From Thermoprotei archaeon (lineage in GTDB: Archaea; Thermoproteota; Thermoprotei; Thermofilales; B69-G16): a DNA stretch of 53,993 nucleotides. Position numbers and translations under genes: made by a program. The first letter of the stretch is position 1, and each line of letters starts with the position of its first letter. The notes under the pieces were generated by a model. It was given only the letters and a program-made list of their open reading frames with translations, did not search any database and was not told the origin of the DNA. This document shows positions 9,571-43,874 of the stretch, in pieces. The DNA lies in assembly GCA_003649235.1 (NCBI GenBank), contig QMRG01000001.1, positions 1-53,993 on the forward strand. Reading direction: 5' to 3'.

Positions 9571-10019
9571 TAGAGATGCCCTACCGAATAGAGATCATCG
9601 ACAATTACGATGAGTTCGAGCGTGAAGTCGAAGAGAAGATCGAGGGAATGGAAGAGCAGTTACAGTACTCGCAGGAAGAGCTCTGGCAAATGGCAGTCGA
9701 ACATCTTAGAGAAGAGGCACCGGTACGCACTGGTGAGTTTAGAGAGAGTCTCGTTGCGGAGGCGCTGGGAGCCATGGAGTGGTGGTTGCATTCCGAACAT
9801 CCGAAGGCACGAATGATCATTGAAGGCACAAGGGCATCGCCAGGACTGTACATCAAGAAGGAAAAGAAGAACGTTGGCAAGCGATTGACGTGGCGTTCAG
9901 GCCGCAGAGACATAGGCATGCATCCAGGAACACCCCCACATCCTGTTTTTCGGCGCACATTTAACTGGCTACTCCAGGTTATAAGGCGTCTTTTGGATCG
10001 AATCGCAAGATGGAGGTGA
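9567..10019 (+). CDS. HK97 gp10-like tail-component protein
   Basis: EEAPVRTGEFRESL matches the 'P.dTG.Lr.S' signature of the HK97 gp10 family. The start overlaps the upstream stop. Confidence 0.45.
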   Translation: MIEMPYRIEIIDNYDEFEREVEEKIEGMEEQLQYSQEELWQMAVEHLREEAPVRTGEFRESLVAEALGAMEWWLHSEHPKARMIIEGTRASPGLYIKKEKKNVGKRLTWRSGRRDIGMHPGTPPHPVFRRTFNWLLQVIRRLLDRIARWR

Positions 10020-10023
10020 GAAC

Positions 10024-10416
10024 ATGGCAGAGGAGTATCGTAGAATGAAGACGAAGGAGGTCGTCACATCGTCAGGAGCCCGATTTGTCATTCGGAAGAT
10101 GCCGCTCTCGGCCTTCCTGCAGATGATACAGATTTATGATAAGGTGCCACCAACAGAGGAAGGAGCGCGACAGATACTGCCAGACATCGTCAGGGTGATC
10201 CTACCAGCGTGTGTCGTCGAGCCACCTATCGGCGAAGGCCCTGATAAAATTTCAGTCGATGAACTCGATGCTGCCGATGCCTTTGAACTGATTGCAGCCA
10301 TTAACGAGTTCAGCGGCTTGACTGAAGCTGCAGAACGTCAGCGTCGGTCATTTCGCACGCAGCAAAGTAGGAAGGCTCGTAGGGCTGCTATGTCAACTAC
10401 CGCGACGCCCAAGTGA
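10024..10416 (+). CDS. tail assembly chaperone (gpG-like)
   Basis: SD GGAGGTGAG precedes the ATG. The 130-aa acidic protein lies immediately upstream of the tape-measure gene. Confidence 0.5.
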   Translation: MAEEYRRMKTKEVVTSSGARFVIRKMPLSAFLQMIQIYDKVPPTEEGARQILPDIVRVILPACVVEPPIGEGPDKISVDELDAADAFELIAAINEFSGLTEAAERQRRSFRTQQSRKARRAAMSTTATPK

Positions 10417-10426
10417 GGTGGTTCAG

Positions 10427-10552
10427 TTGGAGGGCTCCGACCTCGAAAAGTTCCTCTTTGATATTGCGATTTTGGGTGAAAGTCTATCCGTGCCAAAGCT
10501 ATCTACCAAGGAGAAAGTCCTTGCCAAACGTAGAATGCTAGGCCTGCGGTGA
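10427..10552 (+). CDS. small ORF between chaperone and tape measure (possible gpT-like extension or independent 41-aa protein)
   Basis: The +1 frame is open 10370..10552. GAGGTGG (10415..10421) is followed after 5 nt by TTG 10427. The product MEGSDLEKFLFDIAILGESLSVPKLSTKEKVLAKRRMLGLR looks protein-like, and the stop overlaps the tape-measure GTG. Confidence 0.35.
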   Translation: MEGSDLEKFLFDIAILGESLSVPKLSTKEKVLAKRRMLGLR

Positions 10553-13242
10553 TAAGTGTGTCGACGTCGACAGCCATCCTAGACATTATCATACGCTGGA
10601 TTCAAATTGGAGGTGAAATACCTAAGTTACTCGCAAAAGATCTTGCCATTTTACGGGGTCGTATCGAGGCAACAGACGCACAGGTCATTGAAGCTGCACG
10701 TAACCTAGGTCAGTTCGCTGCCCGACAATTGATCTTGCGCGACCTTGCCAAGGCTAGTGGTAAGTCGTTCCAAGATCTGTCGCGAAACATTTGGGATTTG
10801 TATGCGATTGCAGAAGAACTTGGCCGAAGACTTGGTGTACCTTTTGAAGACATGTACGATGCCATCCGCATGGCTCTTCCGAAGATGGGTGCCCAGCTCG
10901 ACTATTTGAGACAGCAAGTAACTGAAGGTGCCAAAGACCAAACGCGCGCAATGCGAGGCATTGGCATTATTGCTGATGCAATTGCCGAACAGATCAAAGG
11001 AGTATCTGCGCCGAAGATCACTATGGCACTTCAGCGTATGCGGCAAGTGTTCGGCTTGACACGTGACGACATCATAGATGCATTTTGGGTTGCGGCAAAG
11101 GCTCAGGCGCGAACGGCAGACATGATGACTGGGCGCGTTACTGAATTGGCGAAAGCTATTCGATCACGTACTGGTGAGATCGATGCTGCTTTTCGGACAC
11201 GTTTAGCAAACCTTAGGGATCAGATGACTCGTGATCTGTCGCATTTGAAAGAAGACACAGAGAACATTATTTCGGAGCAGGAATGGCTAAGGGATGCTGC
11301 GATACGAGCATGGGAGTCAGTAGCCCGGGCAACAGAGAAAGTTCAGAAGCCCATCACTGACGTGACACAGATGACCGATGAGATGAAGCAGCAATACAGA
11401 GAATGGATGGAGCAACAACTGCAGGCACAGAAGGCTACACAACAAACAGGTCAATCGATAGAGCAGAACGTTGTGAGGCTTTTCAAGAAGGGTGCAGACG
11501 AATCCGACAAGATCGCTGATGCAATAGCCAATATCGATTGGGAGGCGTTTCGGAGTGCTCTCGAGAAGAACAAGCCTGCATTGCAGAAGATGGTTGCAGG
11601 TCAGGAGCTGACACGAGAGGAAGCACTGAAGTTCTTAGCGGCATTAGAACAAGCCATACCCGGCATCTGGGACTTAATGAGAACGTTGGGCGTTCACTTT
11701 GAGAAGATGCGGTTCTTAGGCAAGACCTACGATGAGACAACGGCTCTCTGGAGAGATTTGTCGAGCGCATGGGAGAAAGGAGCAGACGCAGCGGCCAGAT
11801 CGATATACGATCTTGCAAGCGAGTATGCAACGGCCGACAAATACATTGAGCAGGTCGCACGTCGACTTGTTCAAACGGGTGGCGAGCTTGACGACTGGAG
11901 CAAGAAGGCACTGAAGTCCGCTGCTGAGACGCTGGGCTGGCGTGAGGCTTCCGATCGACTAGCCCGGTCAATTGTCAGATTTAGGCGCGAATCCGGTCGA
12001 ACATCGCGTGAAACAAATCGATTTACGATTTCACTGTATCGTGCAGGATGGCGTGTCGGCTTCTTCGGCTGGATTCTCAGTTATTCAGGGCGCTCGGTAA
12101 TACGGTGGGGTCAGCAACTCACAGGCACCTTCAGGAGGATACTGGACACCATCGGCAACCTAGAACGGAATGTTGATACGCTTGCAACAGCAATAGGACT
12201 GCTCGGTGCAACTGGACTCGGAACAGCTGAAGAAATAGGCAAGCTTCGCGAAACCCTTGGACAGATGCCCGACATTGCCATGTTTGCACAAGCAATGTTG
12301 TCAGGGCTTCAAGGAGCATTCCTCGCGCTCTTGACGAATGTCATAGGTCCACTACGTCCACAGCTCGAGGAACTCTTTCGTGCCATCTTCGCACTCCTCA
12401 CCGATCCGCAGCTCATCCAGGCCATTCAAAACTTGGCTAGCACCTTCATCGACGTGTTGCTACCAATCTTCCCAGACATCAAAGCTGCCGTCCTTGACGT
12501 TATCGGCCTCGTTCAGCAACTCCTACCACTGATTGCACCGATCATTCCACTACTGATCCGCATTGCACCTCTGCTCGTCGGCATAGGCTCAGCTGCATGG
12601 GCCTTAGGCCCAGCATTCACAGCAGCAGGTAGCGCCGTAAAACTGTTTTCGACACTCATGAACAACAAAGTAAGAATCATCGCGGCTTTCGGGAAAACCA
12701 TAGGTGGACTGTCGGCTGCTCTGACATTTCTCGCACATCATCCGCTAGTTGCCGCAGCAGCCGTCGTAGCCCTAATCGGAGTGCTCTGGCACCTCTACAA
12801 TACGAATAAGGATGTGCGGAATGCAATCGACGGGCTCATCGATACGCTGAAAGAGCTGCTGCGTACACTGAGCCCGCTAAAGGATGCGATTCAGGGCGCA
12901 GTGAATGCACTTGGCAGCTTCGGTCAAGCAGTAGGCAGTGCGCTTGGTTCGGCATTAAACTTTATACGAAACATTTGCATTGCACATACGATGCAGGACA
13001 TTGCAGAACGAACGGCCGAAGCAACTTCCATGTTACAGTCGTTCCGAAGTGAGCTCAATCGTACAGGCTCAGCAATAGAGAGTGTGACGGGTCCAGGCGC
13101 CACCTTTGGCTCACCTGCACAAGTCGTGTATATTTACCCATCGATAACAATCGGAACCGTGAGTTCATCCGTCGACCTCGAAGAAGTTCAAGACACAGTT
13201 AACCGAGGAATAGCCGAAGCAATAAGGAGTAGATTGCCATGA
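10549..13242 (+). CDS. tail tape measure protein
   Basis: 897 aa, largely helical, with a hydrophobic G/A/L/I-rich block near the C-terminus (..LLPLIAPIIPLLIRIAPLLVGIGSAAWALGPAF..). Canonical position after the chaperone. Confidence 0.75.
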   Translation: MISVSTSTAILDIIIRWIQIGGEIPKLLAKDLAILRGRIEATDAQVIEAARNLGQFAARQLILRDLAKASGKSFQDLSRNIWDLYAIAEELGRRLGVPFEDMYDAIRMALPKMGAQLDYLRQQVTEGAKDQTRAMRGIGIIADAIAEQIKGVSAPKITMALQRMRQVFGLTRDDIIDAFWVAAKAQARTADMMTGRVTELAKAIRSRTGEIDAAFRTRLANLRDQMTRDLSHLKEDTENIISEQEWLRDAAIRAWESVARATEKVQKPITDVTQMTDEMKQQYREWMEQQLQAQKATQQTGQSIEQNVVRLFKKGADESDKIADAIANIDWEAFRSALEKNKPALQKMVAGQELTREEALKFLAALEQAIPGIWDLMRTLGVHFEKMRFLGKTYDETTALWRDLSSAWEKGADAAARSIYDLASEYATADKYIEQVARRLVQTGGELDDWSKKALKSAAETLGWREASDRLARSIVRFRRESGRTSRETNRFTISLYRAGWRVGFFGWILSYSGRSVIRWGQQLTGTFRRILDTIGNLERNVDTLATAIGLLGATGLGTAEEIGKLRETLGQMPDIAMFAQAMLSGLQGAFLALLTNVIGPLRPQLEELFRAIFALLTDPQLIQAIQNLASTFIDVLLPIFPDIKAAVLDVIGLVQQLLPLIAPIIPLLIRIAPLLVGIGSAAWALGPAFTAAGSAVKLFSTLMNNKVRIIAAFGKTIGGLSAALTFLAHHPLVAAAAVVALIGVLWHLYNTNKDVRNAIDGLIDTLKELLRTLSPLKDAIQGAVNALGSFGQAVGSALGSALNFIRNICIAHTMQDIAERTAEATSMLQSFRSELNRTGSAIESVTGPGATFGSPAQVVYIYPSITIGTVSSSVDLEEVQDTVNRGIAEAIRSRLP

Positions 13243-13586
13243 GTTGGCAAATTGAGTCCGTAACACTTCCACTTCCGCCGAGAACTGTTACGGTGAAGTA
13301 CGCGGCAGCAGTGAAATCTGTCAACATGCCAGGCTCACTACCCTACATTATGAGTTTTGGAAAGCAAGCCGTTACGATGACATGGGAAGGCTACCTGACA
13401 GACAAGTCACTCGTTGACGATTTAGCCGATCTCGTCTACAAGCAGGTTACCGTTGCGACTCCGGATACAAACTACAACGGCGAGTGGATTCTCGCAAGTT
13501 TCACGTGGCGAGAGAGAGGCGGACGCGTCAACGATGTGGAATACCGCCTCGAGTTCATAAAGGGAAGTGACTACACGGTGATGTAG
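13239..13586 (+). CDS. small distal-tail/baseplate protein
   Basis: ATGA overlap with the tape-measure stop. The function of this 115-aa ORF is inferred from position only. Confidence 0.4.
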   Translation: MSWQIESVTLPLPPRTVTVKYAAAVKSVNMPGSLPYIMSFGKQAVTMTWEGYLTDKSLVDDLADLVYKQVTVATPDTNYNGEWILASFTWRERGGRVNDVEYRLEFIKGSDYTVM

Positions 13587-13587
13587 C

Positions 13588-16500
13588 ATGCCTGGCTGGA
13601 AAATCGAATATTACGACGACGCATCCTGGCAACCGTTAGCCGGCATCATCGAACATATAGTCGAGGAGCTTAACGGTCACAAAGAGGCGGTCTTCAGGCT
13701 ACCAAATACATCGGCAAACAGATCACTTGTCGTATCTGATCGTCGTGTTCGCATAAGCTTCAATGGCACCGTTCTCTTCCAAGGCATTCTTTCAGCCGTA
13801 AAATACTCACAGGACTACCTGCAATGCAAGGCCTACGACGAGTGCATCGTGCGGATGCAATCGAAAGTCTTCACGGGCACCTACGACAGTACACCTGCGA
13901 ATACGATTCTGCAAGCCATTTGTGACGAAGCTGGCGTCACTGCAGGTAGCTGTCCGACAACGTCAGTATCTGTGCGTTTCGACTACACAATTTGCTTCGA
14001 TGCAGCTACCTTTCTCGCTGATGTACTGAATTCCGACTGGTGGACTGACTACGACGAATACGGTAATCCACGATTCAATATCGGAGCGAGAGGCTCAGAC
14101 AAGGGCACACTGTCTTACATTTCTATTTCGAGACGCGGTATCGACCGGTCCAAGAAGCGTACGAAGGTCATCATCCGTGGAGTGGACAAGGACGGTAACA
14201 CCATTTATGGAGTCGCAGGCTCAGGCGACAGCGTTGCCGTGTTTACCGAGAAGAAGGCGTCTGACGTTGCCACATTGAATTCACTTGCCGCGAAGAAGCT
14301 CGCCGAACTGAACAAAGAATCGAGCGGCGTATCTGTTACCGTAAAGATCACAGATGGTTACGATCTCTATCCTGGCGATACTGTAACGATCTCAAACGAG
14401 CACTTGAACCTGTCGGGCAGCTACCGCATCTGGAAGATCACCAAGAAGTTAGCTGTATGTGCAGTTGAAGTTGACAGAGCAGAAGCCGTTCTTGAGAAGT
14501 ACATCAAGGAGACTCGACAGTACGAAGATCTGGGAATTTATCCGGTGGCATCCTCGCAGCTCGACAATCCTCCAGGTCCACCTTCCGCTCCAACTGGTTT
14601 AACTGCAACATCCGAACCAGGCGCCATTCGTCTGCAATGGAATGCGAATACTGAAGCCGATTTAGATGGCTACATCATCTACAGGGATACGTCGTCTCCT
14701 GCAAGCACGGAATACGTTAAGACCAGTAGTACGGTCTTCGTTGACACGAATGTTGAAGTTGGCACAACGTACTACTACCGCATCAAGGCATATGACAGAG
14801 CAGGCAACCTTTCAGACTTTTCATCCGAGGTGTCCGCCTCTCCACAACCTCTTAGTGAAGGTTTAGACTATCCTGAAGGTCCACCAGCAACTCCAACAGG
14901 ACTCATTGCAACTCCAAGCATTAAGGGTATTATCCTTGAGTGGGATCCGAATACCGAGGCAGATCTCGATCACTACGTTATCTACAGAGGAACGTCGTCA
15001 TCACCTACTACAGAATATGCGAGAACCGCATCGACAATCTTCGTAGACAATAAGGTCGACTATGGAACCACGTATTACTACCGCATTAAAGCCGTAGATA
15101 GAGTAGGCAATGCCTCAGACTATTCGGATGAAGTGTCGGCATCTCCAGTGAAAGTTGACTCACTGGACATTGCGCCAGATGCCGTCGAGTCTGAGCATAT
15201 TCTTGAGGAGGCCGTCAAGGAGGCTCACTTACAAGATGGTGCAGTTACACCACGAAAACTTCTCGTGTCAGCGATCTTCCTGGATGGAATTGCGTTCACT
15301 GATAACAGTCCAAGTTCGGGATACGTTAGCTGGACATCAGGCACACTTTACTACGAAGGTGTGGCATACTCTATCAACTCCGGTTACACAAACAAGAAGT
15401 ACATCTACTGGGAGAAGCCGAATACGTCGTTCTCGGTGTCGGACACGAAGCCATCATGGGCGCCTGACAGATTCTTGATTGCTGTTAACGAGGACGGAAC
15501 ACATACACTCGTCTGGAATGCAACGCTTATTCATGGCGGATCGATAATCACTGGCACGATAACTGCGCAGGAGATAAAGTCACGAAGCATTACGGCAGAC
15601 AGGATTGCAACGAACACGATAACGTCGAATGAAGTCCTGAACATTTCGTCGGACAAAATCGTCATAAGTGGTTCGGTGTACCTATCGGACTGGAGACATC
15701 CTTCCGATGTGACCAAGATTGACGGTGGACAGATCTATACGAGTTCAATCACGGCCGATAAGCTGTCCTTCCCTGCGTTTGACAAGAGCTCAGATACACT
15801 GGACGACATTGCAGATGGCTCCACGTACAGGAGAGTGAAAAGTGCAGCACTCAGTGCAGATGGCTTTGTGTTGCTCGATGAGACGATAGACGGCACGTAT
15901 GGAAAGGTTCTTGCATCGGACATACAAGCAGGACACATAAAGCTCAGTACAACAGTCAAGGACGGACGGTGGTACGACGAGAGTGGAGTCATCATCGACG
16001 CTGATGAGGGAATCCAGATCTATGGCGGAGCAGGTGTCATGGGGCTCACTACACGGAGTTCGAAGGACGGCGACATACAGTGTTATGTAGGAACCGACGG
16101 AAAGTTCTATGCTGGAGGCGGCGACGTTGTACTTGACACGAATGGCATAACCATCTACGGTGAAAGGATTCAGTTCAGAGACGCGTCATCCCTCGAACTG
16201 TCAGGGCAAATCTACGGCTCCGGGCCTGCACTCGTCATTACGACAGGTTCCGGCGGCAACCTTGTCCTGAATCCGTCAGGCGACGTAATGGTTGACGGCG
16301 ATCTCGAACCAATGGGCACGTATAACATTGGGTCACCGAGCAACAAGTGGAATGAGATCTATGCGGTGTCACTGGTCGTCGATGGACAAACGATTGGTGG
16401 TGACCTGGGTGTTTCAGGCACGCTCAGCGTCGACGAAATCAAGGAGTACACATCAGGCGCGAATGTTACGTTTTTGAACAGTGTACTGCCAGGAGGCAAT

Positions 16501-17874
16501 GCAACACTCGACCTTGGTAGCAGCAGTGCAAAGTGGAAGAATCTCTACGTAGCAGGCTTCGGAGACTTAGGCTCACTGAAAATCGGAGAGACCGAAGTCA
16601 TTACAAGTGGAAGGGTATTGCAGAATTTCGCTTCGATAGCTCAGACCCTGCTTCCAAGCTCAGATAGTGCCTATGATTTAGGTAGCTCAAGCTATAAATG
16701 GAGAAATGGTTACATAATCACTAACGTAATCGGTTCTGGAGTGTCGCTTCCGAATGGCATTTCTGGAGAATTGCATGTTGGCTGGAGAAAATATACTTCG
16801 TCTGGTGACTACGAGATCAGCAGAATAGCAATACAACCACCGTTTCATACGGGAGGACCGTTCAGAGTGTTTGCGAGAGACGACCCATCTAATGCACATC
16901 TCGCTTTGAAATATGGCACTAACAAAATTTTCGAAATACGTCATAACGGCTTGTTGTGGCTTTTCAATACTGCCTATCTAAGAACAATTCTTCCATATTC
17001 CGATAATTCCCATGATCTTGGTTCTTCAAGTTATAGATGGCGTAACCTTGAACTTTCAGGTTACGGCAACCTCGGAAGCTTGAGGATTAGCGGGACTGAA
17101 GTCATCACAAGCAGTAGAGTTCTTCAGAATGTCTCTGCTGACGCTGGCATAATTACGAGCGGAGTTTTCGATGTAGCTAGGATTCCAAACCTAGATGCTT
17201 CCAAGATCACTTCAGGAGTCTTCGATTTGGCTAGAATTCCTTCAATTGACTGGTCCAGAATGCCATTTGACACCTGGAGCGAACTCCTCGACGAAATCGG
17301 CAACTCTGTAGGCGACTACCTCAACTTGACCTATCTGCAAATCGGCGGCTCAACCGTCATCACCAGTGGACGCTCCATCAAGAACATTTCGTCTGTTGCT
17401 CAGGCATGGATTCCGGACGGCAACAGTACAAGAGACCTTGGCTCATCGAGTTACCAGTGGCACAATTTGTATCTGGGCGGATCGCTTATCATAGGTGGCG
17501 ACACAAATCTTTATAGATCCGGCTCGAACATACTGAAGACGGACGATCACTTCGATGCGCTATCCCTGAAAGTCGGAGGAACCGAGGTTGTCTCAAGTAG
17601 CAGAGTCCTCCGTAACATTAGTTATGTTGATCAGACGCTGTTGCCGCTTACAGGCGGCTACTACAACTTAGGTTCGTCGGACCTCAAGTGGAATAAAGTC
17701 TATGCCAATCACTTCTATGGGACTGCTCACTATGCCGACATTTGCTTCCAGGATCTCGAATGTCCGATATGTCACCGTAAGTTCGAAGTCGGTGATCAGC
17801 TCGTGTTAACGGTTCTCGAGGTCACAGACAAAGAGATCAGGTGTCAGCCAGCTCACTTGGAGTGTGCATCCTGA
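13588..17874 (+). CDS. tail fibre / receptor-binding protein with hub-like N-terminus, two FN3 domains and fibre repeats
   Basis: 1428 aa. It has two tandem FN3-like modules, six copies of the (L/I)GSxSxKWxxxY fibre motif, and the C-terminal motif DLECPICHRKF..CQPAHLEC. Confidence 0.75.
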   Translation: MPGWKIEYYDDASWQPLAGIIEHIVEELNGHKEAVFRLPNTSANRSLVVSDRRVRISFNGTVLFQGILSAVKYSQDYLQCKAYDECIVRMQSKVFTGTYDSTPANTILQAICDEAGVTAGSCPTTSVSVRFDYTICFDAATFLADVLNSDWWTDYDEYGNPRFNIGARGSDKGTLSYISISRRGIDRSKKRTKVIIRGVDKDGNTIYGVAGSGDSVAVFTEKKASDVATLNSLAAKKLAELNKESSGVSVTVKITDGYDLYPGDTVTISNEHLNLSGSYRIWKITKKLAVCAVEVDRAEAVLEKYIKETRQYEDLGIYPVASSQLDNPPGPPSAPTGLTATSEPGAIRLQWNANTEADLDGYIIYRDTSSPASTEYVKTSSTVFVDTNVEVGTTYYYRIKAYDRAGNLSDFSSEVSASPQPLSEGLDYPEGPPATPTGLIATPSIKGIILEWDPNTEADLDHYVIYRGTSSSPTTEYARTASTIFVDNKVDYGTTYYYRIKAVDRVGNASDYSDEVSASPVKVDSLDIAPDAVESEHILEEAVKEAHLQDGAVTPRKLLVSAIFLDGIAFTDNSPSSGYVSWTSGTLYYEGVAYSINSGYTNKKYIYWEKPNTSFSVSDTKPSWAPDRFLIAVNEDGTHTLVWNATLIHGGSIITGTITAQEIKSRSITADRIATNTITSNEVLNISSDKIVISGSVYLSDWRHPSDVTKIDGGQIYTSSITADKLSFPAFDKSSDTLDDIADGSTYRRVKSAALSADGFVLLDETIDGTYGKVLASDIQAGHIKLSTTVKDGRWYDESGVIIDADEGIQIYGGAGVMGLTTRSSKDGDIQCYVGTDGKFYAGGGDVVLDTNGITIYGERIQFRDASSLELSGQIYGSGPALVITTGSGGNLVLNPSGDVMVDGDLEPMGTYNIGSPSNKWNEIYAVSLVVDGQTIGGDLGVSGTLSVDEIKEYTSGANVTFLNSVLPGGNATLDLGSSSAKWKNLYVAGFGDLGSLKIGETEVITSGRVLQNFASIAQTLLPSSDSAYDLGSSSYKWRNGYIITNVIGSGVSLPNGISGELHVGWRKYTSSGDYEISRIAIQPPFHTGGPFRVFARDDPSNAHLALKYGTNKIFEIRHNGLLWLFNTAYLRTILPYSDNSHDLGSSSYRWRNLELSGYGNLGSLRISGTEVITSSRVLQNVSADAGIITSGVFDVARIPNLDASKITSGVFDLARIPSIDWSRMPFDTWSELLDEIGNSVGDYLNLTYLQIGGSTVITSGRSIKNISSVAQAWIPDGNSTRDLGSSSYQWHNLYLGGSLIIGGDTNLYRSGSNILKTDDHFDALSLKVGGTEVVSSSRVLRNISYVDQTLLPLTGGYYNLGSSDLKWNKVYANHFYGTAHYADICFQDLECPICHRKFEVGDQLVLTVLEVTDKEIRCQPAHLECAS
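14568..15150 (+). repeat. tandem FN3-domain duplication inside the fibre gene
   Basis: The first copy reads PPGPPSAPTGLTATSEPGAIRLQWNANTEADLDGYIIYRDTSSPASTEYVKTSSTVFVDTNVEVGTTYYYRIKAYDRAGNLSDFSSEVSASP. The second reads PEGPPATPTGLIATPSIKGIILEWDPNTEADLDHYVIYRGTSSSPTTEYARTASTIFVDNKVDYGTTYYYRIKAVDRVGNASDYSDEVSASP. Confidence 0.85.
16326..17706 (+). repeat. six dispersed fibre repeats (L/I)GSxSxKWxxxY
   Basis: The six copies are IGSPSNKWNEIYA, LGSSSAKWKNLYV, LGSSSYKWRNGYI, LGSSSYRWRNLEL, LGSSSYQWHNLYL and LGSSDLKWNKVYA. Most are followed by G(D/N)LGSL(K/R)I(G/S)xTEVITS-type segments. Confidence 0.8.
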
Positions 17875-18602
17875 TGGGCTTCACGTGGAGCAGAGAGATA
17901 ACGTCAGGCACTGACATACGAGCCGACGACGTCAACGAAATTAAGAATAACATTGACACGATCTACTCGGAACTAGGCATCAACTATCCGGGATGCACAG
18001 GTGCAGGCTGGATTGAACTGCCGGTGTCGTCCGGTGATCCGATAGAGTCTGCAGACTTCCAGGAGCTGCGAGACCGACTCGACTACGGATGGGATCACCG
18101 GTGTCCGAGTCACGACTCTGCAGATAATTCGACGTATAATGATGCCGTACAGACCGCAGACCATGATGACCACGACAGCACGCACTACAATGATGACAAC
18201 AATGACCATAACGGTCAGAATTTTGACACACACTACAACGACGAAAATACAGGGCACTTGGGTTCATATGACAGTTCGGATGACAGTGGAGAGCACACTT
18301 CTGACTGGTTAGCAGATTACACGATCCACTATGATGGTGTTAGAGAATCGGAAAACGTGAGCAACTATTCGGGTGACAGAGACTATCACTATCCAGGCTA
18401 CGATAGCGAATACTACTATGGAGTCAAGACGGGAAACGAAACGGGTTATCATCCAGGTGCAGATACGGGTTACAATTCGGGTGATGAGACTGCCGAAAAG
18501 TACTCCGATTATACGTCGTATTGTGGAACTCATGAAGATGGTGTGGACTCTTACTATTACAACAGCCACAATGAACTACATGACATGGACTACTGGTGGT
18601 AG
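17874..18602 (+). CDS. fibre-associated protein A: conserved N-terminal module + Asp/Tyr/His/Ser/Gly/Asn-rich low-complexity tail
   Basis: TGATG overlap with the fibre stop. The N-terminus is MGFTWSREITSGTDIRADDVNEIKNNIDTIY, with a second copy PIESADFQELRDRLDY. After the CPSHDS junction, about 165 aa contain repeats such as STHYND, DTHYND, TIHYDG and YHYPGYDSEYYYG. Confidence 0.6.
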   Translation: MGFTWSREITSGTDIRADDVNEIKNNIDTIYSELGINYPGCTGAGWIELPVSSGDPIESADFQELRDRLDYGWDHRCPSHDSADNSTYNDAVQTADHDDHDSTHYNDDNNDHNGQNFDTHYNDENTGHLGSYDSSDDSGEHTSDWLADYTIHYDGVRESENVSNYSGDRDYHYPGYDSEYYYGVKTGNETGYHPGADTGYNSGDETAEKYSDYTSYCGTHEDGVDSYYYNSHNELHDMDYWW

Positions 18603-18604
18603 GT

Positions 18605-19192
18605 ATGGGCTTTACGTGGACACAAGACATCTCGGTTGGAGTATCAATTGATGCGGCCGACATAAATGAGATCCGGGACAAGACGGATACGCTGTACGAC
18701 AACATGTGTGCATCGCACGACTCTTCGTATCACAGTACGCACTACCCATCGAATTTGGGTACGGACAGATCTCCTGTGAACAGTGGAGCGGAGACCGGCG
18801 TCGACAATGGCTACTACCTCGAAGACTGGCCTGAGTACTGGACAGGAGTTGATACCGAGCATAACCCGGGGGATGACGGCTCGTACTACATCGAAGCGAA
18901 GACAGATCACTTTACAGGCGACAAAGGGCTCTATTATGCATCGTATGTCTCAGGAGCTAATCCTTCTGATTACGGAGCTGACTACACTACACATTACCCG
19001 AACGAGCATAACATCTACAATTCAGGTGTCGATTCCGGCGTATACTCTGATCATGATGTCTCAGAGGATGTAGGTTACGACTCAGGTGCCGTATCTACGA
19101 ACTATAGTGGAGACAAAGGAATGCACTACGGAACGTATTATGACGACTATCATGGTACGTACCGCGACTATGACGATGTGACGGTGTTCTAA
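18605..19192 (+). CDS. fibre-associated protein B (paralogue of A)
   Basis: GGTGGTAGG precedes the ATG. The N-terminus is MGFTWTQDISVGVSIDAADINEIRDKTDTLY, followed by a CASHDS junction and a D/Y/H/S/G-rich tail (STHYPS, TTHYPN, GMHYGTYYDDYHGTYRDYDD). Confidence 0.6.
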   Translation: MGFTWTQDISVGVSIDAADINEIRDKTDTLYDNMCASHDSSYHSTHYPSNLGTDRSPVNSGAETGVDNGYYLEDWPEYWTGVDTEHNPGDDGSYYIEAKTDHFTGDKGLYYASYVSGANPSDYGADYTTHYPNEHNIYNSGVDSGVYSDHDVSEDVGYDSGAVSTNYSGDKGMHYGTYYDDYHGTYRDYDDVTVF

Positions 19193-20461
19193 ATGGAATC
19201 GCTTGAAATCTTAACCACGGCTTGGTGTCCATTCAACTGCAAGTATTGCTATATACCGAAGACGCCGATGACGGTGAGAATGCACAAGGAGCTAGAGGGA
19301 AAGCTCTCATCGTTGATCAGGGATGCTGCGAAGCTGCGAATAAAGCACATAGGCTTCTGGGGTACAGAGCCGACGCTGACGCTAAGCAAGATAGACGTGC
19401 AGGAGCTCCTCAGCAATCCGTCGTTGGAGACAATTTCGTTCTCGACATCAATGATGTACAAGCCTGAGGTCATCAGAGAGTTCATCATGAGGGTTGCGCC
19501 GCATAAGGTCAATGTGAGAGTACAGGTGTCGCTGGATGGGCCGGCATTCATAACGGACAGGAACAGAATGGAAGGTGCAGCCGAACGAATTCCGCAAAAT
19601 TTGAAGCAGTTGGTGTGCAGTCTGCAGGGCGTGAATCTCGGCGAGACAACCGTTGAGTTCCGCTTCAAGGCAACGCTCACCATCGACAATCTGAAAGAGA
19701 TGGTAAGAGAGCCGAAACTGATCGATGAGTACAAGGCATACTTTGAAGGAATAGAGCGTGAGCTGATCAAGGCGAACACCAATAGGAATGTGCGGATAGC
19801 ACGTGGAACGTACTGCCCGACGATGATGGTTCCAGGGAAGTACACTTCCGAGGACGGCAAGATCTTTTGCAGTTTTGTCAAGGAGTGTTACGCACACGAC
19901 CTGAAGACTGCATATCACTACCGTCTAAGGAGAATCTACGACTATGCTTACGAGCTCCACAAAAAGAGAATGTTCACGTGTTCGGGAGGCGACAGCAACT
20001 TCGGTTATGACGGCAGCTTTCACATCTGTCACAGGAGCTTCTATTTGAACCGCGACGACTACGTGCAGTCAGTACTGCAGACGGACATCGACAACTGGGA
20101 CGTCTCACTGTTCAAGCTAGGGCACATCCAGCACGTCAGACGGTACATAACGCGTGACTTGGTGCGTCTGCAGTATGTCTTGCGCGGACACCACGACTTC
20201 TGGAAGTTTGACGTCTCGTCAGTAGTTGCACGACTTCAAGAGCTAGCCGCCTGTGGACAGGTCAGCGAATTGTATCGGGATGACCACTGGGCGGTAAAGT
20301 TTGCAATATTCTCACAGGCAGGACTCGACTGTCCGATGGAGAACCTGTTGAATACGGGTTCGATTCACATTGTGCCTGTGTCACTCATAAGACTGTTTTG
20401 TAATGGAGCGTTTGAGGAGATTGACAGGAGGGTGAGAAGTGAGATATCAGGACGAAAATGA
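19193..20461 (+). CDS. radical SAM enzyme with partial SPASM/twitch-like C-terminal domain
   Basis: TAAATG junction with the upstream gene. It has CPFNCKYC (Cx3Cx2C), GFWGTEPTL and SLDG blocks, plus a later FTCSGGDSNFGYDGSFHICHRSF segment of the auxiliary-cluster type. Confidence 0.7.
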   Translation: MESLEILTTAWCPFNCKYCYIPKTPMTVRMHKELEGKLSSLIRDAAKLRIKHIGFWGTEPTLTLSKIDVQELLSNPSLETISFSTSMMYKPEVIREFIMRVAPHKVNVRVQVSLDGPAFITDRNRMEGAAERIPQNLKQLVCSLQGVNLGETTVEFRFKATLTIDNLKEMVREPKLIDEYKAYFEGIERELIKANTNRNVRIARGTYCPTMMVPGKYTSEDGKIFCSFVKECYAHDLKTAYHYRLRRIYDYAYELHKKRMFTCSGGDSNFGYDGSFHICHRSFYLNRDDYVQSVLQTDIDNWDVSLFKLGHIQHVRRYITRDLVRLQYVLRGHHDFWKFDVSSVVARLQELAACGQVSELYRDDHWAVKFAIFSQAGLDCPMENLLNTGSIHIVPVSLIRLFCNGAFEEIDRRVRSEISGRK

Positions 20462-21713
20462 CAAGTGGCTTCAAACGTTCCTGAGACGGACATTCTACAA
20501 GGGATTCAAGCAGCCAGACAGATATCCTAACTGGTCGAGAGTGGAGCTGTTCGTTACGGCAAACTGTAACCAGCAATGCAAGTATTGCTACTTGGCACGC
20601 TACGGGCACTTGCTGTATCCGGAGTACGATCCGGACACCGTAGTGCAAAATGCACGGAGACTTCTCGACTGGCTCAAAGTGAATGGCTTCAGGCCAAACC
20701 TTGAGCTGTTCTCCGGTGAACCACTCGTGCAGCAGGTAGGCTTCAAAGTCATCGATGCGGTGCTAAAGCGACGATTCCCGTCGTTGGTCATACCGACAAA
20801 CTTCAGCTTTATGTTAAGTGACAAGCTGGTTGAAAAGGTAGAGCGACGGATCCGTACGGCACGGAAGCATGGCATCAGGCTGTTCTTGAGTGCGTCCATC
20901 GACGGAAAGTATTGTGAGGCGAACAGACCACTGAAGGGTTACGATGTGGATCCGCGCGACGACGCCTTCTACGACAAGGTCTTCGCGTTCTGCAGTAAGC
21001 ACGGCTTCGGTTTTCACCCGATGGTCTACTCGGAGCTGATCGAATACTGGCCCGAGAACTTCCTGTGGTTCCAGGCAATGTTCAAAAAGCACAAAATACC
21101 ATGGTGGAACCTGTACCTGCTAGAGGTACGCAATCCGGAATGGACGCCACGACAAATCCAACACCTAGGAAACTTCATCAAATTTTTGGTCAGGTGGACA
21201 TACAGCAAAACAGGAAAACACAAATTCATCGACTTCATCTTCAAACAAAAAGGCTTCAACATACTAAGCAACCCACTAACAAGAGTAGGACGAGGACTAG
21301 GCTGCTCAATACAATCGGTAATGTCTGTACGACTGCAAGACCTGGCGATATTCCCGTGTCACAGAACAGCATATCCACAGTTCAAAGTGGCACAGTTTGA
21401 CGAGCGCATGCAAATCAGGGCAGTCAATCCGGACCTCTGGATGACAGTGCTAACGTTTGATGCGAATACACTGCCCTACTGCGAGACGTGTCCCGTGAAG
21501 TATCTCTGTGGAAAGGGATGTCTCGGTGCACAGTTTGAAACGACTGGTGACCTGTTTACTCCGATACCAACAGTCTGTCAGATGGAGCACTGGAAGCTGT
21601 ATAGCTATGTAGAGGCTCTGAAGGAGATAGGTATGCTGGATGTCATAAAAGAGATTGTCGAGCCTGACAAACGCTACAGTATAGAGTGGCTGGAGGGTGA
21701 GCTGAAACGATAG
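20439..21713 (+). CDS. radical SAM / SPASM-domain enzyme (anSME-like maturase family)
   Basis: It overlaps the upstream gene. It has CNQQCKYC (Cx3Cx2C), FSGEPLV and SIDG blocks, GCSIQSVMSVRLQDLAIFPCHR, and a full SPASM motif YCETCPVKYLCGKGCLG (Cx2Cx5Cx3C). Confidence 0.7.
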   Translation: MRYQDENDKWLQTFLRRTFYKGFKQPDRYPNWSRVELFVTANCNQQCKYCYLARYGHLLYPEYDPDTVVQNARRLLDWLKVNGFRPNLELFSGEPLVQQVGFKVIDAVLKRRFPSLVIPTNFSFMLSDKLVEKVERRIRTARKHGIRLFLSASIDGKYCEANRPLKGYDVDPRDDAFYDKVFAFCSKHGFGFHPMVYSELIEYWPENFLWFQAMFKKHKIPWWNLYLLEVRNPEWTPRQIQHLGNFIKFLVRWTYSKTGKHKFIDFIFKQKGFNILSNPLTRVGRGLGCSIQSVMSVRLQDLAIFPCHRTAYPQFKVAQFDERMQIRAVNPDLWMTVLTFDANTLPYCETCPVKYLCGKGCLGAQFETTGDLFTPIPTVCQMEHWKLYSYVEALKEIGMLDVIKEIVEPDKRYSIEWLEGELKR

Positions 21714-22651
21714 TGTATTTTAACTTGAACGTTGGCGGCGGCATCGAGCGGACAGGACGTGTCGTGGAGACTATGTTGCCAGATGCGCATGTCTATCGAC
21801 AGCAGAATCCCGGATGCATCATCGCTGAAGAGCTAGCCAGATTGCAGCCAGATGTCATCGTCATGAACGAGCAGTTCCCAAGGGTCATGGAAGCCGTCTA
21901 CTACTATAGGCTGACGCACAAATGCAACGTGATACTGCTCAATCATTGCTATGACTGCATCAACGGGCGGCGAGTCGATGATCCTGACAGACGACTTCTC
22001 GTAAGGCGATTCCTGAGACAAATAGACACGATTCTCAATTTGAATTATGTGCCAGAGAATGCGAAGCTGCTGCGAAACGTCATACGGATGTATCATCCTT
22101 GTAATCCGAAGTTCAGGCTGAAGATTCCATGGGACGAACGACCCAAGAAGTGCCTATACTGGGGCAATCTGGCGCCGCACAAGTTCAACGTGAAGTTCCT
22201 AGAGCTATACGATGACATAGACGTTTACGGACGCATACGTTGCGACGGCGAATACAAAGATAGACTGCTGGAAAGCGGATGCTATAGAGGCTATCTGCCT
22301 GAAGAGCGTCTCGTCGACACTATCAACGAGTATAAGTATTTCGTGGTGCCGCATGATGGCTACGAGCCGTTCATGTTGACGTTGCAAGAGGCAATGCAAT
22401 GCGGAACGATTCCGTTGGTTACGAACAGCAGAGACTATCCGAAGAGTTACTGGATCGACTGGGCGAAAGGACTCTACATTGAGTTTCGTGATGTATGGCA
22501 GCTAAGCAGATGGTTGAGGCGGGACCGTGATCTGACTCAGATGTCGTATGGGATAGCTCGCGAGATAAGAAGAAGACACAGCTACGACAGGTTCAAAAAG
22601 GTATTATGGTCACTTATCAAAAGAAAGCTGAGCTGGGAGGTGATGGTATGA
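21713..22651 (+). CDS. GT-B fold glycosyltransferase (GT4-like)
   Basis: GTG start at the upstream stop. YEPFMLTLQEAMQCGTIPLVT contains the E-x7-E motif typical of GT4 retaining glycosyltransferases. Confidence 0.55.
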   Translation: MYFNLNVGGGIERTGRVVETMLPDAHVYRQQNPGCIIAEELARLQPDVIVMNEQFPRVMEAVYYYRLTHKCNVILLNHCYDCINGRRVDDPDRRLLVRRFLRQIDTILNLNYVPENAKLLRNVIRMYHPCNPKFRLKIPWDERPKKCLYWGNLAPHKFNVKFLELYDDIDVYGRIRCDGEYKDRLLESGCYRGYLPEERLVDTINEYKYFVVPHDGYEPFMLTLQEAMQCGTIPLVTNSRDYPKSYWIDWAKGLYIEFRDVWQLSRWLRRDRDLTQMSYGIAREIRRRHSYDRFKKVLWSLIKRKLSWEVMV

Positions 22652-23166
22652 GCGTAAACGCGTTCTACAGGTGTGCGGATAGAGTGCGATATCTAATGCG
22701 CTTCAGGAACTTCGAACGACTATTCGGAGGGTATTCAACGGAAGCACGCCGCACCATTGAAAGGTGCATCGACGATATGGTCAGAATGGCAAATGGCACC
22801 AGAATGGTCGGTGACGTTGCAGCAGTTAACAAGGTGGCCGACGTGTTGCTCGACAGGGTGACCAGGATGCCGATAACGCCTTACATGAAGGACTTCTCTG
22901 AGCAGTGCTGCTTGTTGCTCTATAACTGGAACCAATCCATCGAGAATACTGATGCGGCGTTGACGTCGAAGCTCCGTGCTATTGATCGGCTAGTGAAGGC
23001 GCACTATACGATAATGGATGCGATAAATGTGCTTCGGAGACTAGTGAGAGGACCCTACGTGCCTGCTGCATATGAATTAAGTAGACACTACCTGGAGGTG
23101 ATGCGTGATGAAGGAGAAAGAGCTGGCCAAACTTGTCCTGAAAAAGGAAGCACGCGAAAATCCTGA
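22648..23166 (+). CDS. hypothetical helical protein
   Basis: GGGAGGTGATGGT precedes ATG 22648, which forms an ATGA overlap with the glycosyltransferase stop. Confidence 0.45.
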   Translation: MSVNAFYRCADRVRYLMRFRNFERLFGGYSTEARRTIERCIDDMVRMANGTRMVGDVAAVNKVADVLLDRVTRMPITPYMKDFSEQCCLLLYNWNQSIENTDAALTSKLRAIDRLVKAHYTIMDAINVLRRLVRGPYVPAAYELSRHYLEVMRDEGERAGQTCPEKGSTRKS

Positions 23167-23341
23167 AGGGAAAGTGATCATCGGCAACAGAGTGTTGACG
23201 TACAGGGAGCTCGAACAGCTCATAGACAGCGACAAGGACGTCGAAAAGCACCTCGTGAAGCCTTTCACAAAGTTGCTCAGGGAGTCGAAGTCATTTCTCA
23301 GAGAGGTGATGCGATATGCGAATACAGGTAGTAGCTCCTGA
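23108..23341 (+). CDS. hypothetical protein
   Basis: GGAGGTG (23093..23099) is followed after 8 nt by ATG 23108. The ORF overlaps the end of the previous one in another frame. Confidence 0.4.
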   Translation: MKEKELAKLVLKKEARENPEGKVIIGNRVLTYRELEQLIDSDKDVEKHLVKPFTKLLRESKSFLREVMRYANTGSSS

Positions 23342-24005
23342 GTTTGATGTAGTGACAAGTTACAGCGTCAGATGGGCAGAGGAGGCCATCGAGAAGCTAC
23401 GCGAAAAGTACGTCGTTAGGGCGATGACAGGCAGACCCTACACGAGACAAGAAGTCGAAAGGGTCTTCGAGCGTGCCTTCGAAATGTTCGTCTTCTACGA
23501 TCACGGCAACGAAGATGCACTTTACGGCGACGAAAACGAAAAGGTCATCGACCTGGACAACGTCGAGCTACTACGAGACAAGATCGTTTACACGATGGCC
23601 TGCCTCTCAGCGAAGAAGCTGGGAGTCGAGGCATGGCGAAGAGGCTGCAGGGTCTACTGGGGCTATTACGAGCCATTCTGCTTTACGCTAGCAGAAGAAC
23701 ACTACTTCAAGAGGTTTGCCAATTATGGACTGATGCTACTGGCAGATGGAGTTCCACCTGCAGAAGCAAAACGGAGGACGTTACAGCTGGGCCAGCAACT
23801 AATCGAGGAGCTACAAAAACGGGGGAGGTATATTGCGGCTGCAGTGCTGAAGCAGGACATGGAAGCACTTCGGTGCTACAACGGTGAAATTCCGCCGTCG
23901 ACGTGTCCGTTCCGCAGACTGGCCTTGCTGCTGTTCGGCAGACATGGCTGGCACTTGCGAAAGCTACTTCGAAGCCTCCTGAGACGACTTCTGCCGTTCC
24001 TCTAA
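23316..24005 (+). CDS. putative clan CD (caspase/gingipain-fold) cysteine peptidase-like protein with Arg/Leu-rich C-terminal helix
   Basis: AGAGGTGA is followed after 6 nt by the ATG. Hydrophobic strand + HG (MFVFYDHGNED) and hydrophobic strand + AC (KIVYTMACLSAK) fit the His/Cys dyad layout of clan CD. The C-terminus is FRRLALLLFGRHGWHLRKLLRSLLRRLLPFL. This is the last gene of the + operon. Confidence 0.35.
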   Translation: MRIQVVAPEFDVVTSYSVRWAEEAIEKLREKYVVRAMTGRPYTRQEVERVFERAFEMFVFYDHGNEDALYGDENEKVIDLDNVELLRDKIVYTMACLSAKKLGVEAWRRGCRVYWGYYEPFCFTLAEEHYFKRFANYGLMLLADGVPPAEAKRRTLQLGQQLIEELQKRGRYIAAAVLKQDMEALRCYNGEIPPSTCPFRRLALLLFGRHGWHLRKLLRSLLRRLLPFL

Positions 24006-42899: not shown

Positions 42900-43101
42900 C
42901 GCGTTCACCTCCTACAACACGTGCCTTGTAGGGATCGATTCCTGCGTCACGGAGAGCTTCGACAACTGCACAGTAAATGCAGTCGCCTGCATTACGCCAT
43001 TCGATGACTGGCCTCTCAGACCAGCTAGACGGACGCCTTTCGATGGCGTCACGCAGAATCATCCTCCAGTCAAGCCGAGCTAACAATTCTATCAGGCGCA
43101 T
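42886..43101 (-). CDS. hypothetical protein
   Basis: GAGGTG is followed after 5 nt by ATG 43101. Confidence 0.45.
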   Translation of the reverse strand: MRLIELLARLDWRMILRDAIERRPSSWSERPVIEWRNAGDCIYCAVVEALRDAGIDPYKARVVGGERDASP

Positions 43102-43874
43102 TCAAACACCTCGGAGAGGAGTCTCATAACACCGTCTTTTACGGAAGTTGACCAGGAGAATGATGGCTTAGGAGTCGTCACGCTATACTCAAAACGAGAC
43201 AGATGATACTTATATTTCAGGTCAAGATTCGGATGACGCAGACAAAAATTGCGGAAGATGTTCAGGATGTCGTTAACCGACGTTTGAACTCCTGTGCAGA
43301 TGAAGGCTTCTTGAAGGTCGGACTGCGCGAACCGAATGATGTTCCTGCAGGCGTCATCTACATGAATGAAATCTCTTGTTTGGTTACCGTTACCGTAGAC
43401 GTGTAGGACACCGCCTCGCTTGAGTGTCTTGACCCAACGTGCGATTAGATCGTCCTTCAGACGAAGGTAGTTGCTGCCGCCGTAGACGTGTGACAGGTAG
43501 AAGACGCGACCGTTGAGTTGTTTCACGACACGTGATGCGGCTCTTTTCAGGCAGCCGAAGAGGGTGGAGGGTGGATCGAACGAACTGGCAAACAGCAAAT
43601 CGATGCCGTGGACGTTGCAGATCTCTGCGATCTGAGCTGTAGCATAAAGGTTGGTGCGTAAAGAGGTTTCGATTTGCGCACAAGTGTCAGATGCGGAGAC
43701 AGCTGCAAGATGAATGACCATGTCGACGTTGGAGATGGCCTGCTCGATGCTGTCGAAGTCGGTGATGTCGTGGCCAGATTTGATGTCGTAGCTGATGAAC
43801 TCCCAAGAAGCAGGGAAGAAGCGTCTGAGGTTGCTGCCGATGTAGCCTTCGCCACCTGTAACAAGGACCCTCAT
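43092..43874 (-). CDS. NAD(P)-dependent epimerase/dehydratase-like (extended SDR) protein with atypical active site
   Basis: The Rossmann motif is MRVLVTGGEGYIGSNL, followed by VIHLAAV and GNGNQTRDFIHVDD. Where SDRs carry YxxxK, this protein has FGCLK. Confidence 0.55.
   Translation of the reverse strand: MRVLVTGGEGYIGSNLRRFFPASWEFISYDIKSGHDITDFDSIEQAISNVDMVIHLAAVSASDTCAQIETSLRTNLYATAQIAEICNVHGIDLLFASSFDPPSTLFGCLKRAASRVVKQLNGRVFYLSHVYGGSNYLRLKDDLIARWVKTLKRGGVLHVYGNGNQTRDFIHVDDACRNIIRFAQSDLQEAFICTGVQTSVNDILNIFRNFCLRHPNLDLKYKYHLSRFEYSVTTPKPSFSWSTSVKDGVMRLLSEVFECA

Follow-up and report, generated by a model that had tools for sequence, protein, structure and literature searches.

A viral tail-fibre operon that probably encodes radical-SAM-matured repeat proteins related to the His-Xaa-Ser system

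Why would a virus encode a pair of rSAM (radical S-adenosylmethionine) enzymes in a gene set right behind its tail fibre? The question is raised by contig QMRG01000001.1 of assembly GCA_003649235.1, whose whole 53,993-nt stretch is called the window here. The deposited label is that of a contig from a metagenome-assembled genome (MAG) of a Thermoprotei archaeon, and the proteins bear the name 'MAG: Thermoprotei archaeon DRJ38'. By its genes the contig, which stems from a hydrothermal metagenome, is a complete-looking genome of a tailed virus, with a tape-measure protein (10549-13242), a family-B DNA polymerase and weak major-head-protein matches elsewhere in the window. Seven genes in it run head to tail and encode the central tail fibre, two repeat proteins (A and B), the enzymes rSAM1 and rSAM2, a glycosyltransferase (GT) and an all-helical protein, X (Table 1). 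An earlier note on this DNA had proposed that the virus uses such enzymes to modify the tails of its own fibre accessories. Our answer is that the module most likely specifies rSAM-matured repeat proteins, related to the His-Xaa-Ser (HXS) system and new in the setting of a viral fibre. We give about an even chance to the fuller reading, in which the genes form a self-contained maturation module on the tail fibre and rSAM1, rSAM2 and X modify A and B at the fibre tip.

Conservation of the gene set was determined in loci collected with a profile from 38 rSAM2 homologues (25 from GTDB genomes and 47 from IMG/VR, with a few added by exact-protein look-ups). Loci were annotated from maps of open reading frames (ORFs) by jackhmmer, and counts refer to the 43 loci that have a distinct rSAM2 and enough flank. 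rSAM1 was present in 41 and X in 38, while repeat proteins bearing the conserved head described below were found in 40; in 39/43 loci they formed a pair of one long and one short paralogue. When loci were chosen in reverse, by the repeat-protein head alone, rSAM1 was found in 24/24 metagenome loci with at least 1.8 kb downstream, and rSAM2 wherever the contig was long enough. The start of rSAM1 was visible in 13/19 shorter loci picked in this way, the 6 without an rSAM match having less than 700 nt downstream, and 5/5 head-picked IMG/VR loci were already known from rSAM2. The presence of the same module in about 40 distinct loci, in either sampling direction, is far beyond chance. The earlier note had made its proposal depend on conservation of this neighbourhood in related contigs, and conserved it is.

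Gene order varied between loci (AB-AB-rSAM1-rSAM2-X, rSAM1-X-AB-AB-rSAM2-X and rSAM1-rSAM2-X-AB-AB-GT), indicating selection for co-inheritance rather than frozen synteny. Where the rSAM genes lie apart, each has its own X after it. The conserved core consists of two repeat proteins, rSAM1, rSAM2 and X, and GT is an add-on. Every ORF and motif of the cassette described earlier was found in place in the ORF maps and translations; the unit is larger, X and the Zn-ribbon-like domain at the C terminus of the fibre being part of it too.

The strongest available argument for the tails of A and B as substrates of the rSAM1-rSAM2-X trio came from its position next to repeat proteins of a class already known to be matured by rSAM enzymes. 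In the antiphage system HXS the repeat protein HxsA is matured by the rSAM enzymes HxsB and HxsC (Li et al. 2026, PMC13128918). Maturation of HxsA gives a +8 Da change on the SHRSS motif, the small protein HxsD binds HxsC, and the HxsA effector blocks phage DNA entry (PMC13128918). We found the trio within genuine Hxs systems in four loci of the Candidate Phyla Radiation (CPR), L020, L026, L030 and L080. Directly upstream of rSAM1 these loci encode a signal-anchored protein without the head, which carries (S-H-G/S)n repeats in L020 and L026 and D/N/S/Y tails in L030 and L080. The repeat protein of L026 is HxsA4 by NCBIfam (101 bits, cut-off 55). Among its neighbours HxsB reached 476 bits, and 507 in L080 (cut-off 370), HxsD 59 bits (cut-off 50) and HxsD_rel 65 bits (cut-off 41); an HxsC4-like rSAM stayed below its cut-off. 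In a rough neighbour-joining tree, calculated without support values, the Hxs-embedded trios lie inside the radiation associated with head-bearing proteins. 'Type 4' Hxs systems of CPR bacteria (HxsD, HxsD_rel, HxsB, HxsA3/4 and an HxsC4-like rSAM) were seen to hold an rSAM1-rSAM2-X trio as an extra, and in L026 five more HxsC4-like rSAM genes stand in a row downstream (9799-14892).

The likeness to HXS is one of architecture and proposed substrate type. In both, a repeat protein, two distinct rSAMs and a small partner are encoded together, and a whole protein rather than a short peptide is, or would be, matured. His-x-Ser/Thr triads are enriched in the tails, S-H-D-S occurs once in A and once in B, after the junction Cys, and the trio is linked to HxsA3/4-type proteins in the four CPR loci. 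There are differences as well. On the HXS models of NCBIfam (TIGR03976-03979), rSAM1 and rSAM2 reached 25.2 and 27.9 bits for HxsB (TIGR03978, cut-off 370), rSAM2 reached 16.8 bits for HxsC (TIGR03977, cut-off 267.9), and 0/34 repeat proteins with the head (A and B among them) hit an HxsA model; nor is X related to HxsD. A and B have an MxFxW head and no peptidoglycan-binding domain, and neither has a signal peptide or a membrane anchor. Their repeats are acidic, not basic, with a period of 4/8 instead of 3, and their genes stand in a viral tail-fibre operon instead of a defence island.

A and B were confirmed as paralogues (BLASTP E 6e-12). The conserved head comprises about 35 residues (MxFxW...I.A.D.NEI(R/K).N.D...DNxC) and occurs twice in A, at aa 1-31 (17874-17966) and aa 50-77 (18021-18104, ending at Cys77), and once in B (18605-18709, ending at Cys35). 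Its last residues are ...D-(D/N)-N-x-C, and the tail opens with x-(S/T)-H-(D/N)-(S/T)-(S/T), so that the junction reads CPSHDS in A and CASHDS in B. In the homologue alignment this junction, C-x-x-H-(D/N)-(S/T), was the best-conserved element of the tail, and it holds the one Cys-X3-Asp of each protein (CPSHD in A, CASHD in B). Owing to the composition of A, a homologue search from it returned a single relative. No usable match for A, B or X came from Pfam, NCBIfam, PHROGs or PADLOC, and profiles of the repeat-protein family and of the X family found nothing significant among PDB sequences.

The tails had been described as low-complexity and made "almost only" of D, Y, H, S, G, N and T. Neither description held: these residues account for 76% of the tail in A and 71% in B (L, I, V and M together for 6% and 11%), and the tails follow a strict period of four and eight residues. 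The A tail (18105-18599) consists of 20 octads and the B tail (18710-19189) of 19, each in one unbroken register. Autocorrelation of residue classes in 69 tails gave z = +24 to +38 at lags 4, 8, 12 and 16, with +24 for lag 4 and +34 for lag 8, whereas lag 2 was anti-correlated (z = -20). The octad derived by expectation-maximisation was [S/T][T/S/G][V/Y/H][D/N/Y][S/A/G][G/T/S][H/D/Y][N/D/Y], and the phase modulo 4 was kept in 196/216 adjacent 24-residue blocks; the tails are thus an almost indel-free tetrad/octad repeat, with the tetrad [S/T][S/T/G][V/Y/H][D/N]. Tandem Repeats Finder detected no DNA repeats in the tail-coding DNA, and between close relatives the heads were 83-91% identical and the tails 49-73%, with tail length and register kept, indicating that the pattern is held by selection on the protein. 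The 69 tails hold 185 occurrences of H-x-[ST], where 93 would be expected (z = 11), and 481 of [HY]-x-[ST], where the expectation is 269 (z = 16). Repeat proteins of the family range over 100-500 aa, and tails reach 300-450 aa in some homologues. In some viral lineages (L058:2507-4033, L067 and L072) the tails are rich in Tyr, His, Ser, Thr and Asn and basic instead of acidic (e.g. ...HYSGRNATYYATHYTTRNTT...), indicating that the repeat register is conserved and the charge is not. Some A-type homologues carry a LamG/ConA-like domain, for instance between the two head modules in L043:3986-5191 and fused ahead of the head in L032:2517-4193; PDB matches of these domains were the N-terminal region of Pappalysin-2, an S-layer domain protein and an arabinanase.

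Both enzymes were examined for the clusters that they are expected to bind. In rSAM1, CPFNCKYC at aa 12-19 was invariant in 51 homologues, and PF04055 matched with 43.3 bits (cut-off 29.5). Only three further Cys were invariant, C263 (19979-81), C279 (20027-29) and C380 (20330-32), which points to a single, twitch-like auxiliary cluster; the seven-Cys SPASM pattern for two auxiliary clusters is not present. The CX3CX2C motif begins at residue 12, which leaves no space ahead of it for an N-terminal recognition domain. rSAM2 has CNQQCKYC at aa 43-50 and the SPASM stretch CETCPVKYLCGKGC at aa 348-361, and it matched the SPASM model TIGR04085 with 28.4 bits (cut-off 27). On PF04055 it reached 25.2 bits (cut-off 29.5), and many of its homologues carry a precomputed PF04055 match. 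Ten Cys were invariant in 38 rSAM2 homologues, namely those of CX3CX2C and C289, C307, C348, C351, C357, C361 and C380, the last seven in canonical SPASM spacing (C-x(9-15)-G-x4-C ... CX2CX5CX3C ... C). The partial auxiliary-cluster domain in rSAM1 and the complete SPASM domain in rSAM2 that had been read from the sequence were both borne out by these counts. rSAM1 and rSAM2 are alike only at the cluster motif. The rSAM2 family comprises at least 673 clusters at 90% identity, the best 120 of which are 44-76% identical over the full length. In loci L062-L065 the rSAM2 ORF (605 aa, e.g. L062:6389-8206) carries an intein-like insert, CFPAGT...VLVHN|C, that splits CX3CX2C exactly (CNLN|intein|CDYCY); inteins mostly occupy essential active sites.

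The top NCBIfam matches of both enzymes were peptide or protein maturases (PapB, nif11, SCIFF, QhpD, HxsB and cyclophane formers), with 20-46 bits against cut-offs of 300-850, placing rSAM1 and rSAM2 outside every curated family. Matches to MoaA, NirJ and PqqE models stayed at 17-22 bits, and no sugar or cofactor rSAM family outranked the peptide maturases. The earlier note had held that its proposal would fail if the enzymes fell within cofactor or sugar clades, and they do not. The best PDB sequence match of rSAM2 was the thioether synthase CteB (5wgg), and PADLOC gave only weak viperin-core matches for the two rSAMs.

Comparison with individual maturases showed likeness to several and membership of none. 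PapB, a thioether-forming SPASM maturase of ranthipeptides, acts at Cys-X3-Asp (PMC10739248, PMC9413430). It is the top NCBIfam match of both rSAMs, and A and B each have one such motif; however, the scores were 36.7 and 46 bits against a cut-off of 340 (NF047865), and there is a single Cys per protein here, absent in about a quarter of homologues, where PapB substrates have multiple Cys-X3-Asp/Glu motifs. A universal Cys-thioether mechanism was rejected on this absence. The triceptide maturases YhhB, GrrM/OscB, AmcB and WgkB are SPASM rSAMs that iterate on repeated aromatic-X-X motifs. The enrichment of [HY]-x-[ST] over the tail family and weak profile matches recall them, but these matches were 21-33 bits against cut-offs of 310-650, the motif is not enriched in A of the window, the proposed substrates here are proteins of 100-500 aa with a folded head, and Val often replaces the aromatic residue. 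On the model of anaerobic sulfatase-maturing enzymes rSAM2 reached 25 bits against 349 (TIGR03942), and CPSHD/CASHD lacks the P/A-x-R of (C/S)-x-(P/A)-x-R. QhpD, an rSAM that cross-links the protein subunit QhpC, offers a precedent for a protein subunit cross-linked by such an enzyme.

X was modelled with AlphaFold2 as a six-helix bundle (predicted local distance difference test score, pLDDT, 82.8). Fold searches with this confident model returned no match, the best E being 1.1 in PDB and 0.085 in BFVD, and the X family aligned to genuine HxsD with a probability of 0.2% (hhalign). At 50% identity the family of X has 465 representatives, each a small protein that stands alone.

Where the product would act was judged from the fibre. 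The fibre has two fn3 domains and matches several tail-fibre families, among them the PHROG 'central tail fiber J'; most contigs with the module are viral with fibre or spike genes upstream, and the upstream genes of other viral loci match tail-fibre and tail-spike PHROGs. The C-terminal domain of the fibre was detected by jackhmmer upstream of the repeat proteins in 17 loci. It is fused to the fibre in viruses and forms a stand-alone protein of 94-122 aa in the CPR loci L006, L014, L015, L013 and L081, and in CPR genomes without other virion genes this stand-alone domain lies directly upstream of A/B. The split and fused pattern suggests that the domain contacts A and B. The genes from the fibre to X are also tightly coupled in translation, their stops and starts overlapping as TGATG, TAGTG and ATGA, which we count in favour of the tip reading. 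The TGATG overlap of fibre and A reported earlier was confirmed (fibre stop TGA at 17872-17874), and the ATG of X overlaps the GT stop (ATGA).

Some MAG contigs labelled CPR or Omnitrophota are identical to IMG/VR viral contigs (L011 = L034, L025 = L046), so host labels for the module are unreliable, and the assumption that all loci labelled CPR or DPANN are cellular was rejected. Loci L006, L080 and L081 have clearly cellular flanks.

A possible fold of the tip is offered by phage spikes. Kanamaru and colleagues reportedly described in 2002 a C-terminal triple-stranded beta-helix of T4 gp5 built from octapeptide repeats, and DUF2345 of VgrG is likewise a beta-helix of octapeptide repeats. The tails share the eight-residue period, and one homologue with very regular VDSGDDVT-type octads (L059:4710-5882) scored above the Pfam gathering cut-offs for both T4 gp5C and VgrG DUF2345. 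A location at the distal end of the central fibre, here taken from gene position, would fit. In contrast, the composition of A and B is polar and aromatic, not Val/Gly-based, and both miss the two models. We regard a gp5/VgrG-like beta-helix as a lead.

Taken together, these data suggest the following mechanism. The head of A and B would be retained as a recognition and docking element. rSAM1, with one auxiliary Fe-S cluster, and rSAM2, with SPASM and two auxiliary clusters, would act with X, which may be analogous to HxsD, the binder of HxsC. They would install radical-mediated side-chain modifications on the tails, most likely cross-links at His/Tyr-x-Ser/Thr triads and/or at the Cys-X3-Asp/Asn junction. 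In this virus clade the GT4 enzyme may additionally glycosylate the Ser/Thr/Asn-rich tails. The matured A/B pair would sit on the C-terminal Zn-ribbon domain of the fibre and form a stiff, regular receptor-binding tip, possibly gp5/VgrG-like and beta-helical.

Several results weigh against modification at the fibre tip. The case for modification of A and B comes from comparative genomics only, and that for their place in the virion from gene position and domain fusion only; the C-terminal domain of the fibre was detected in only 10/43 loci. No RiPP recognition element (RRE, named after RiPPs, peptides that are ribosomally synthesised and then altered post-translationally) was found in rSAM1 or rSAM2, and X, whose model had no fold match, is neither RRE/PqqD-like nor HxsD-like. 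H-x-[ST] is not enriched in the A tail of the window (3 observed, 2.5 expected), and its enrichment in the B tail is modest (z = 3.3). Val, which cannot form a cyclophane, is frequent at tetrad position 3. About one homologue in four lacks the junction Cys, so a Cys thioether cannot be the universal reaction. Finally, A and B had no match to the gp5C and VgrG models (PF22178, PF10106), and AlphaFold2 gave no fold for B alone (pLDDT 38).

The best-surviving alternative accepts that the trio modifies A and B, and holds that the product is an HXS-like conflict effector and not a part of the virion, serving superinfection exclusion, counter-defence or DNA-entry control like HxsA. We consider it unlikely. 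In its favour, four CPR loci have the trio within genuine Hxs systems, and HXS acts against phages (PMC13128918). Cellular CPR loci also carry the module where no further virion genes are present, next to TatA/TatC and a twin-arginine protein, or with substrates that bear a signal anchor. The ends of tail operons, moreover, often hold accessory genes. However, A and B have neither signal peptide nor membrane anchor and are translationally coupled to the fibre, whose C-terminal domain accompanies A/B even in cells. Lectin-like inserts in some A-type proteins, a gp5C/VgrG-like repeat in one, and the mostly viral contigs with fibre or spike genes upstream also argue for a place on the fibre.

Rather less probable still is that the rSAMs act elsewhere, on the fibre Zn-ribbon, another virion protein or a component of the host surface, with A and B no more than fibre parts assembled alongside. 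The substrate relationship is, after all, inferred from co-occurrence only, and the A tail of the window lacks a clear H-x-S enrichment. Yet wherever the trio occurs, repeat proteins of the A/B or HxsA type accompany it; the fibre domain was detected in few loci (see above), the remaining neighbours vary, and cellular loci hold no alternative conserved candidate substrate.

GT bears on a further alternative, in which it would use a sugar tailored, or a cofactor made, by the rSAMs. The enzyme matched PF00534 with 34.5 bits (cut-off 26.4) and has EPFMLTLQE (E-x7-E) at aa 218-226, so its assignment to a GT4-like family stands. Its place in the core of the cassette does not: GT was found in 11/43 loci and was absent from 32/43 that keep both rSAMs, X and the repeat proteins. 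Of the earlier proposal of rSAM-matured fibre accessories, the tie of the rSAMs to the repeat proteins is supported (40/43, 24/24 and the Hxs linkage), and the tie to GT is not (11/43). In four loci (L009:2466-4877, L081:7488-9980, L097:6369-8816 and L124:6758-9316) an N-terminal rSAM1 and a C-terminal GT4 are fused in one ORF of 800-850 aa. By sequence these fusions are a Rosetta-stone link between the two activities, and they tie GT functionally to the module, though as an accessory. An ORF at 43092-43874 on the minus strand of the window matched the PHROG 'nucleotide-sugar epimerase' (E 1e-32) and may supply GT.

Sugar or cofactor tailoring, the sugar form of which the earlier note had kept as its alternative, could appeal to the GT4 gene between rSAM2 and X, to the rSAM1-GT fusions, to the epimerase-like gene and to rSAM1 itself, since sugar-modifying twitch rSAMs such as BtrN also have a single auxiliary cluster. 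It is nevertheless very improbable because most loci lack GT while keeping everything else, and the module has no further sugar-pathway genes and no match to a sugar or cofactor rSAM family that outranks the peptide maturases. Glycosylation of the tails themselves would have parallels elsewhere. GT-B enzymes glycosylate mycobacteriophage virions, and GtfA/GtfB glycosylate serine-rich repeat adhesins; there, as here, a GT4-type enzyme is encoded beside Ser/Thr-rich structural or adhesin proteins. We know of no rSAM partners in those systems; in the module, by comparison, GT is optional and the tail is a predicted target.

Equally remote is a classical RiPP pathway with A and B as multi-core precursors from which many small modified peptides would be cleaved: the head is leader-like, and iterative processing of repeated short motifs by rSAM enzymes has a precedent in the TVGG repeats of TvgA (PMC9062424), but the module has no protease, exporter or other transporter, the precursors would be proteins of 100-500 aa with tails of up to 300-450 aa in some homologues, and the tails have no recurring cleavage sites and keep an indel-free register and a fixed length, as a folded scaffold would be expected to.

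Beyond the window, it is conceivable, though we hold it at rather less than even, that octad-repeat proteins, covalently cross-linked by a dedicated pair of rSAM enzymes and glycosylated in some lineages, make up adhesins of the fibre tip or surface in uncultivated tailed viruses and in the CPR/DPANN cells with the same module. Viruses and ultra-small, surface-attached CPR/DPANN organisms appear to have the module in common. In the CPR loci L006:3051-4780 and L081:4614-6306, and also in L014, the module is preceded by TatC, TatA, a twin-arginine protein of 76-94 aa (RRKFLKLL) and the Zn-ribbon domain. Such neighbours suggest twin-arginine translocation (Tat)-dependent export of a folded or modified complex, and together with the signal anchor on substrates of other cellular loci they point to surface display. 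They hint at a role in cell-cell or virus-cell attachment of uncultured lineages.

To our knowledge, rSAM maturases are known almost solely from small peptides, a few enzyme subunits and the HXS defence effector. If the octad repeats are indeed cross-linked, this would be the first RiPP-type radical chemistry on a structural protein of a virus, and an evolutionary bridge from phage receptor-binding tips to the antiphage HXS system. Virion assembly and host recognition would gain a new kind of post-translational chemistry from a conserved viral module that applies such enzymes to proteins associated with the fibre, the HXS family would be seen in a second biological setting, on the viral side of the conflict, and enzymology would be offered hundreds of natural pairs of substrate and enzyme. 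A literature search for the module found no publication describing such a gene set; where viral rSAM genes are mentioned, it is only as presumed genes of metabolism. In virome annotation, SPASM genes of this kind are readily mistaken for 'auxiliary metabolic genes', e.g. haem or cofactor synthases. Searches of 50,697 GenBank phage records with blastn (the region) and tblastn (rSAM1 and rSAM2) gave no match.

Table 1. Genes and domains of the tail-fibre operon in the window, from the fibre to X
Feature	Position	Strand	Remarks
Central tail-fibre gene	13588..17874	+	1428 aa; precedes module
Fibre C-terminal domain (last fibre repeat + Zn-ribbon-like CPIC...C..H..C)	17512..17871	+	Zn-ribbon aa 1392-1426 = 17761-17865
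Repeat protein A	17874..18602	+	242 aa; no Pfam, NCBIfam or PHROG family
Repeat protein B	18605..19192	+	195 aa; no Pfam, NCBIfam or PHROG family
rSAM1	19193..20461	+	422 aa; PF04055; CX3CX2C at 19226-19249
rSAM2	20439..21713	+	424 aa; TIGR04085; CX3CX2C at 20565-20588; seven SPASM Cys 21303-21578
GT4-type glycosyltransferase (GT)	21713..22651	+	312 aa; PF00534; E-x7-E at 22364-22390
X, all-helical partner	22648..23166	+	172 aa; no family

X is followed by an ORF of 229 aa (23316-24005, plus strand) that had no homologue in about 80 related loci and no family match. It marks the end of the conserved module, just ahead of the switch to minus-strand replication genes. Over the tail-coding DNA (17973-18910), several ORFs of 85-95 aa were also seen in other frames and on the opposite strand; rather than being genes, they most likely result from a biased composition with few stop codons.

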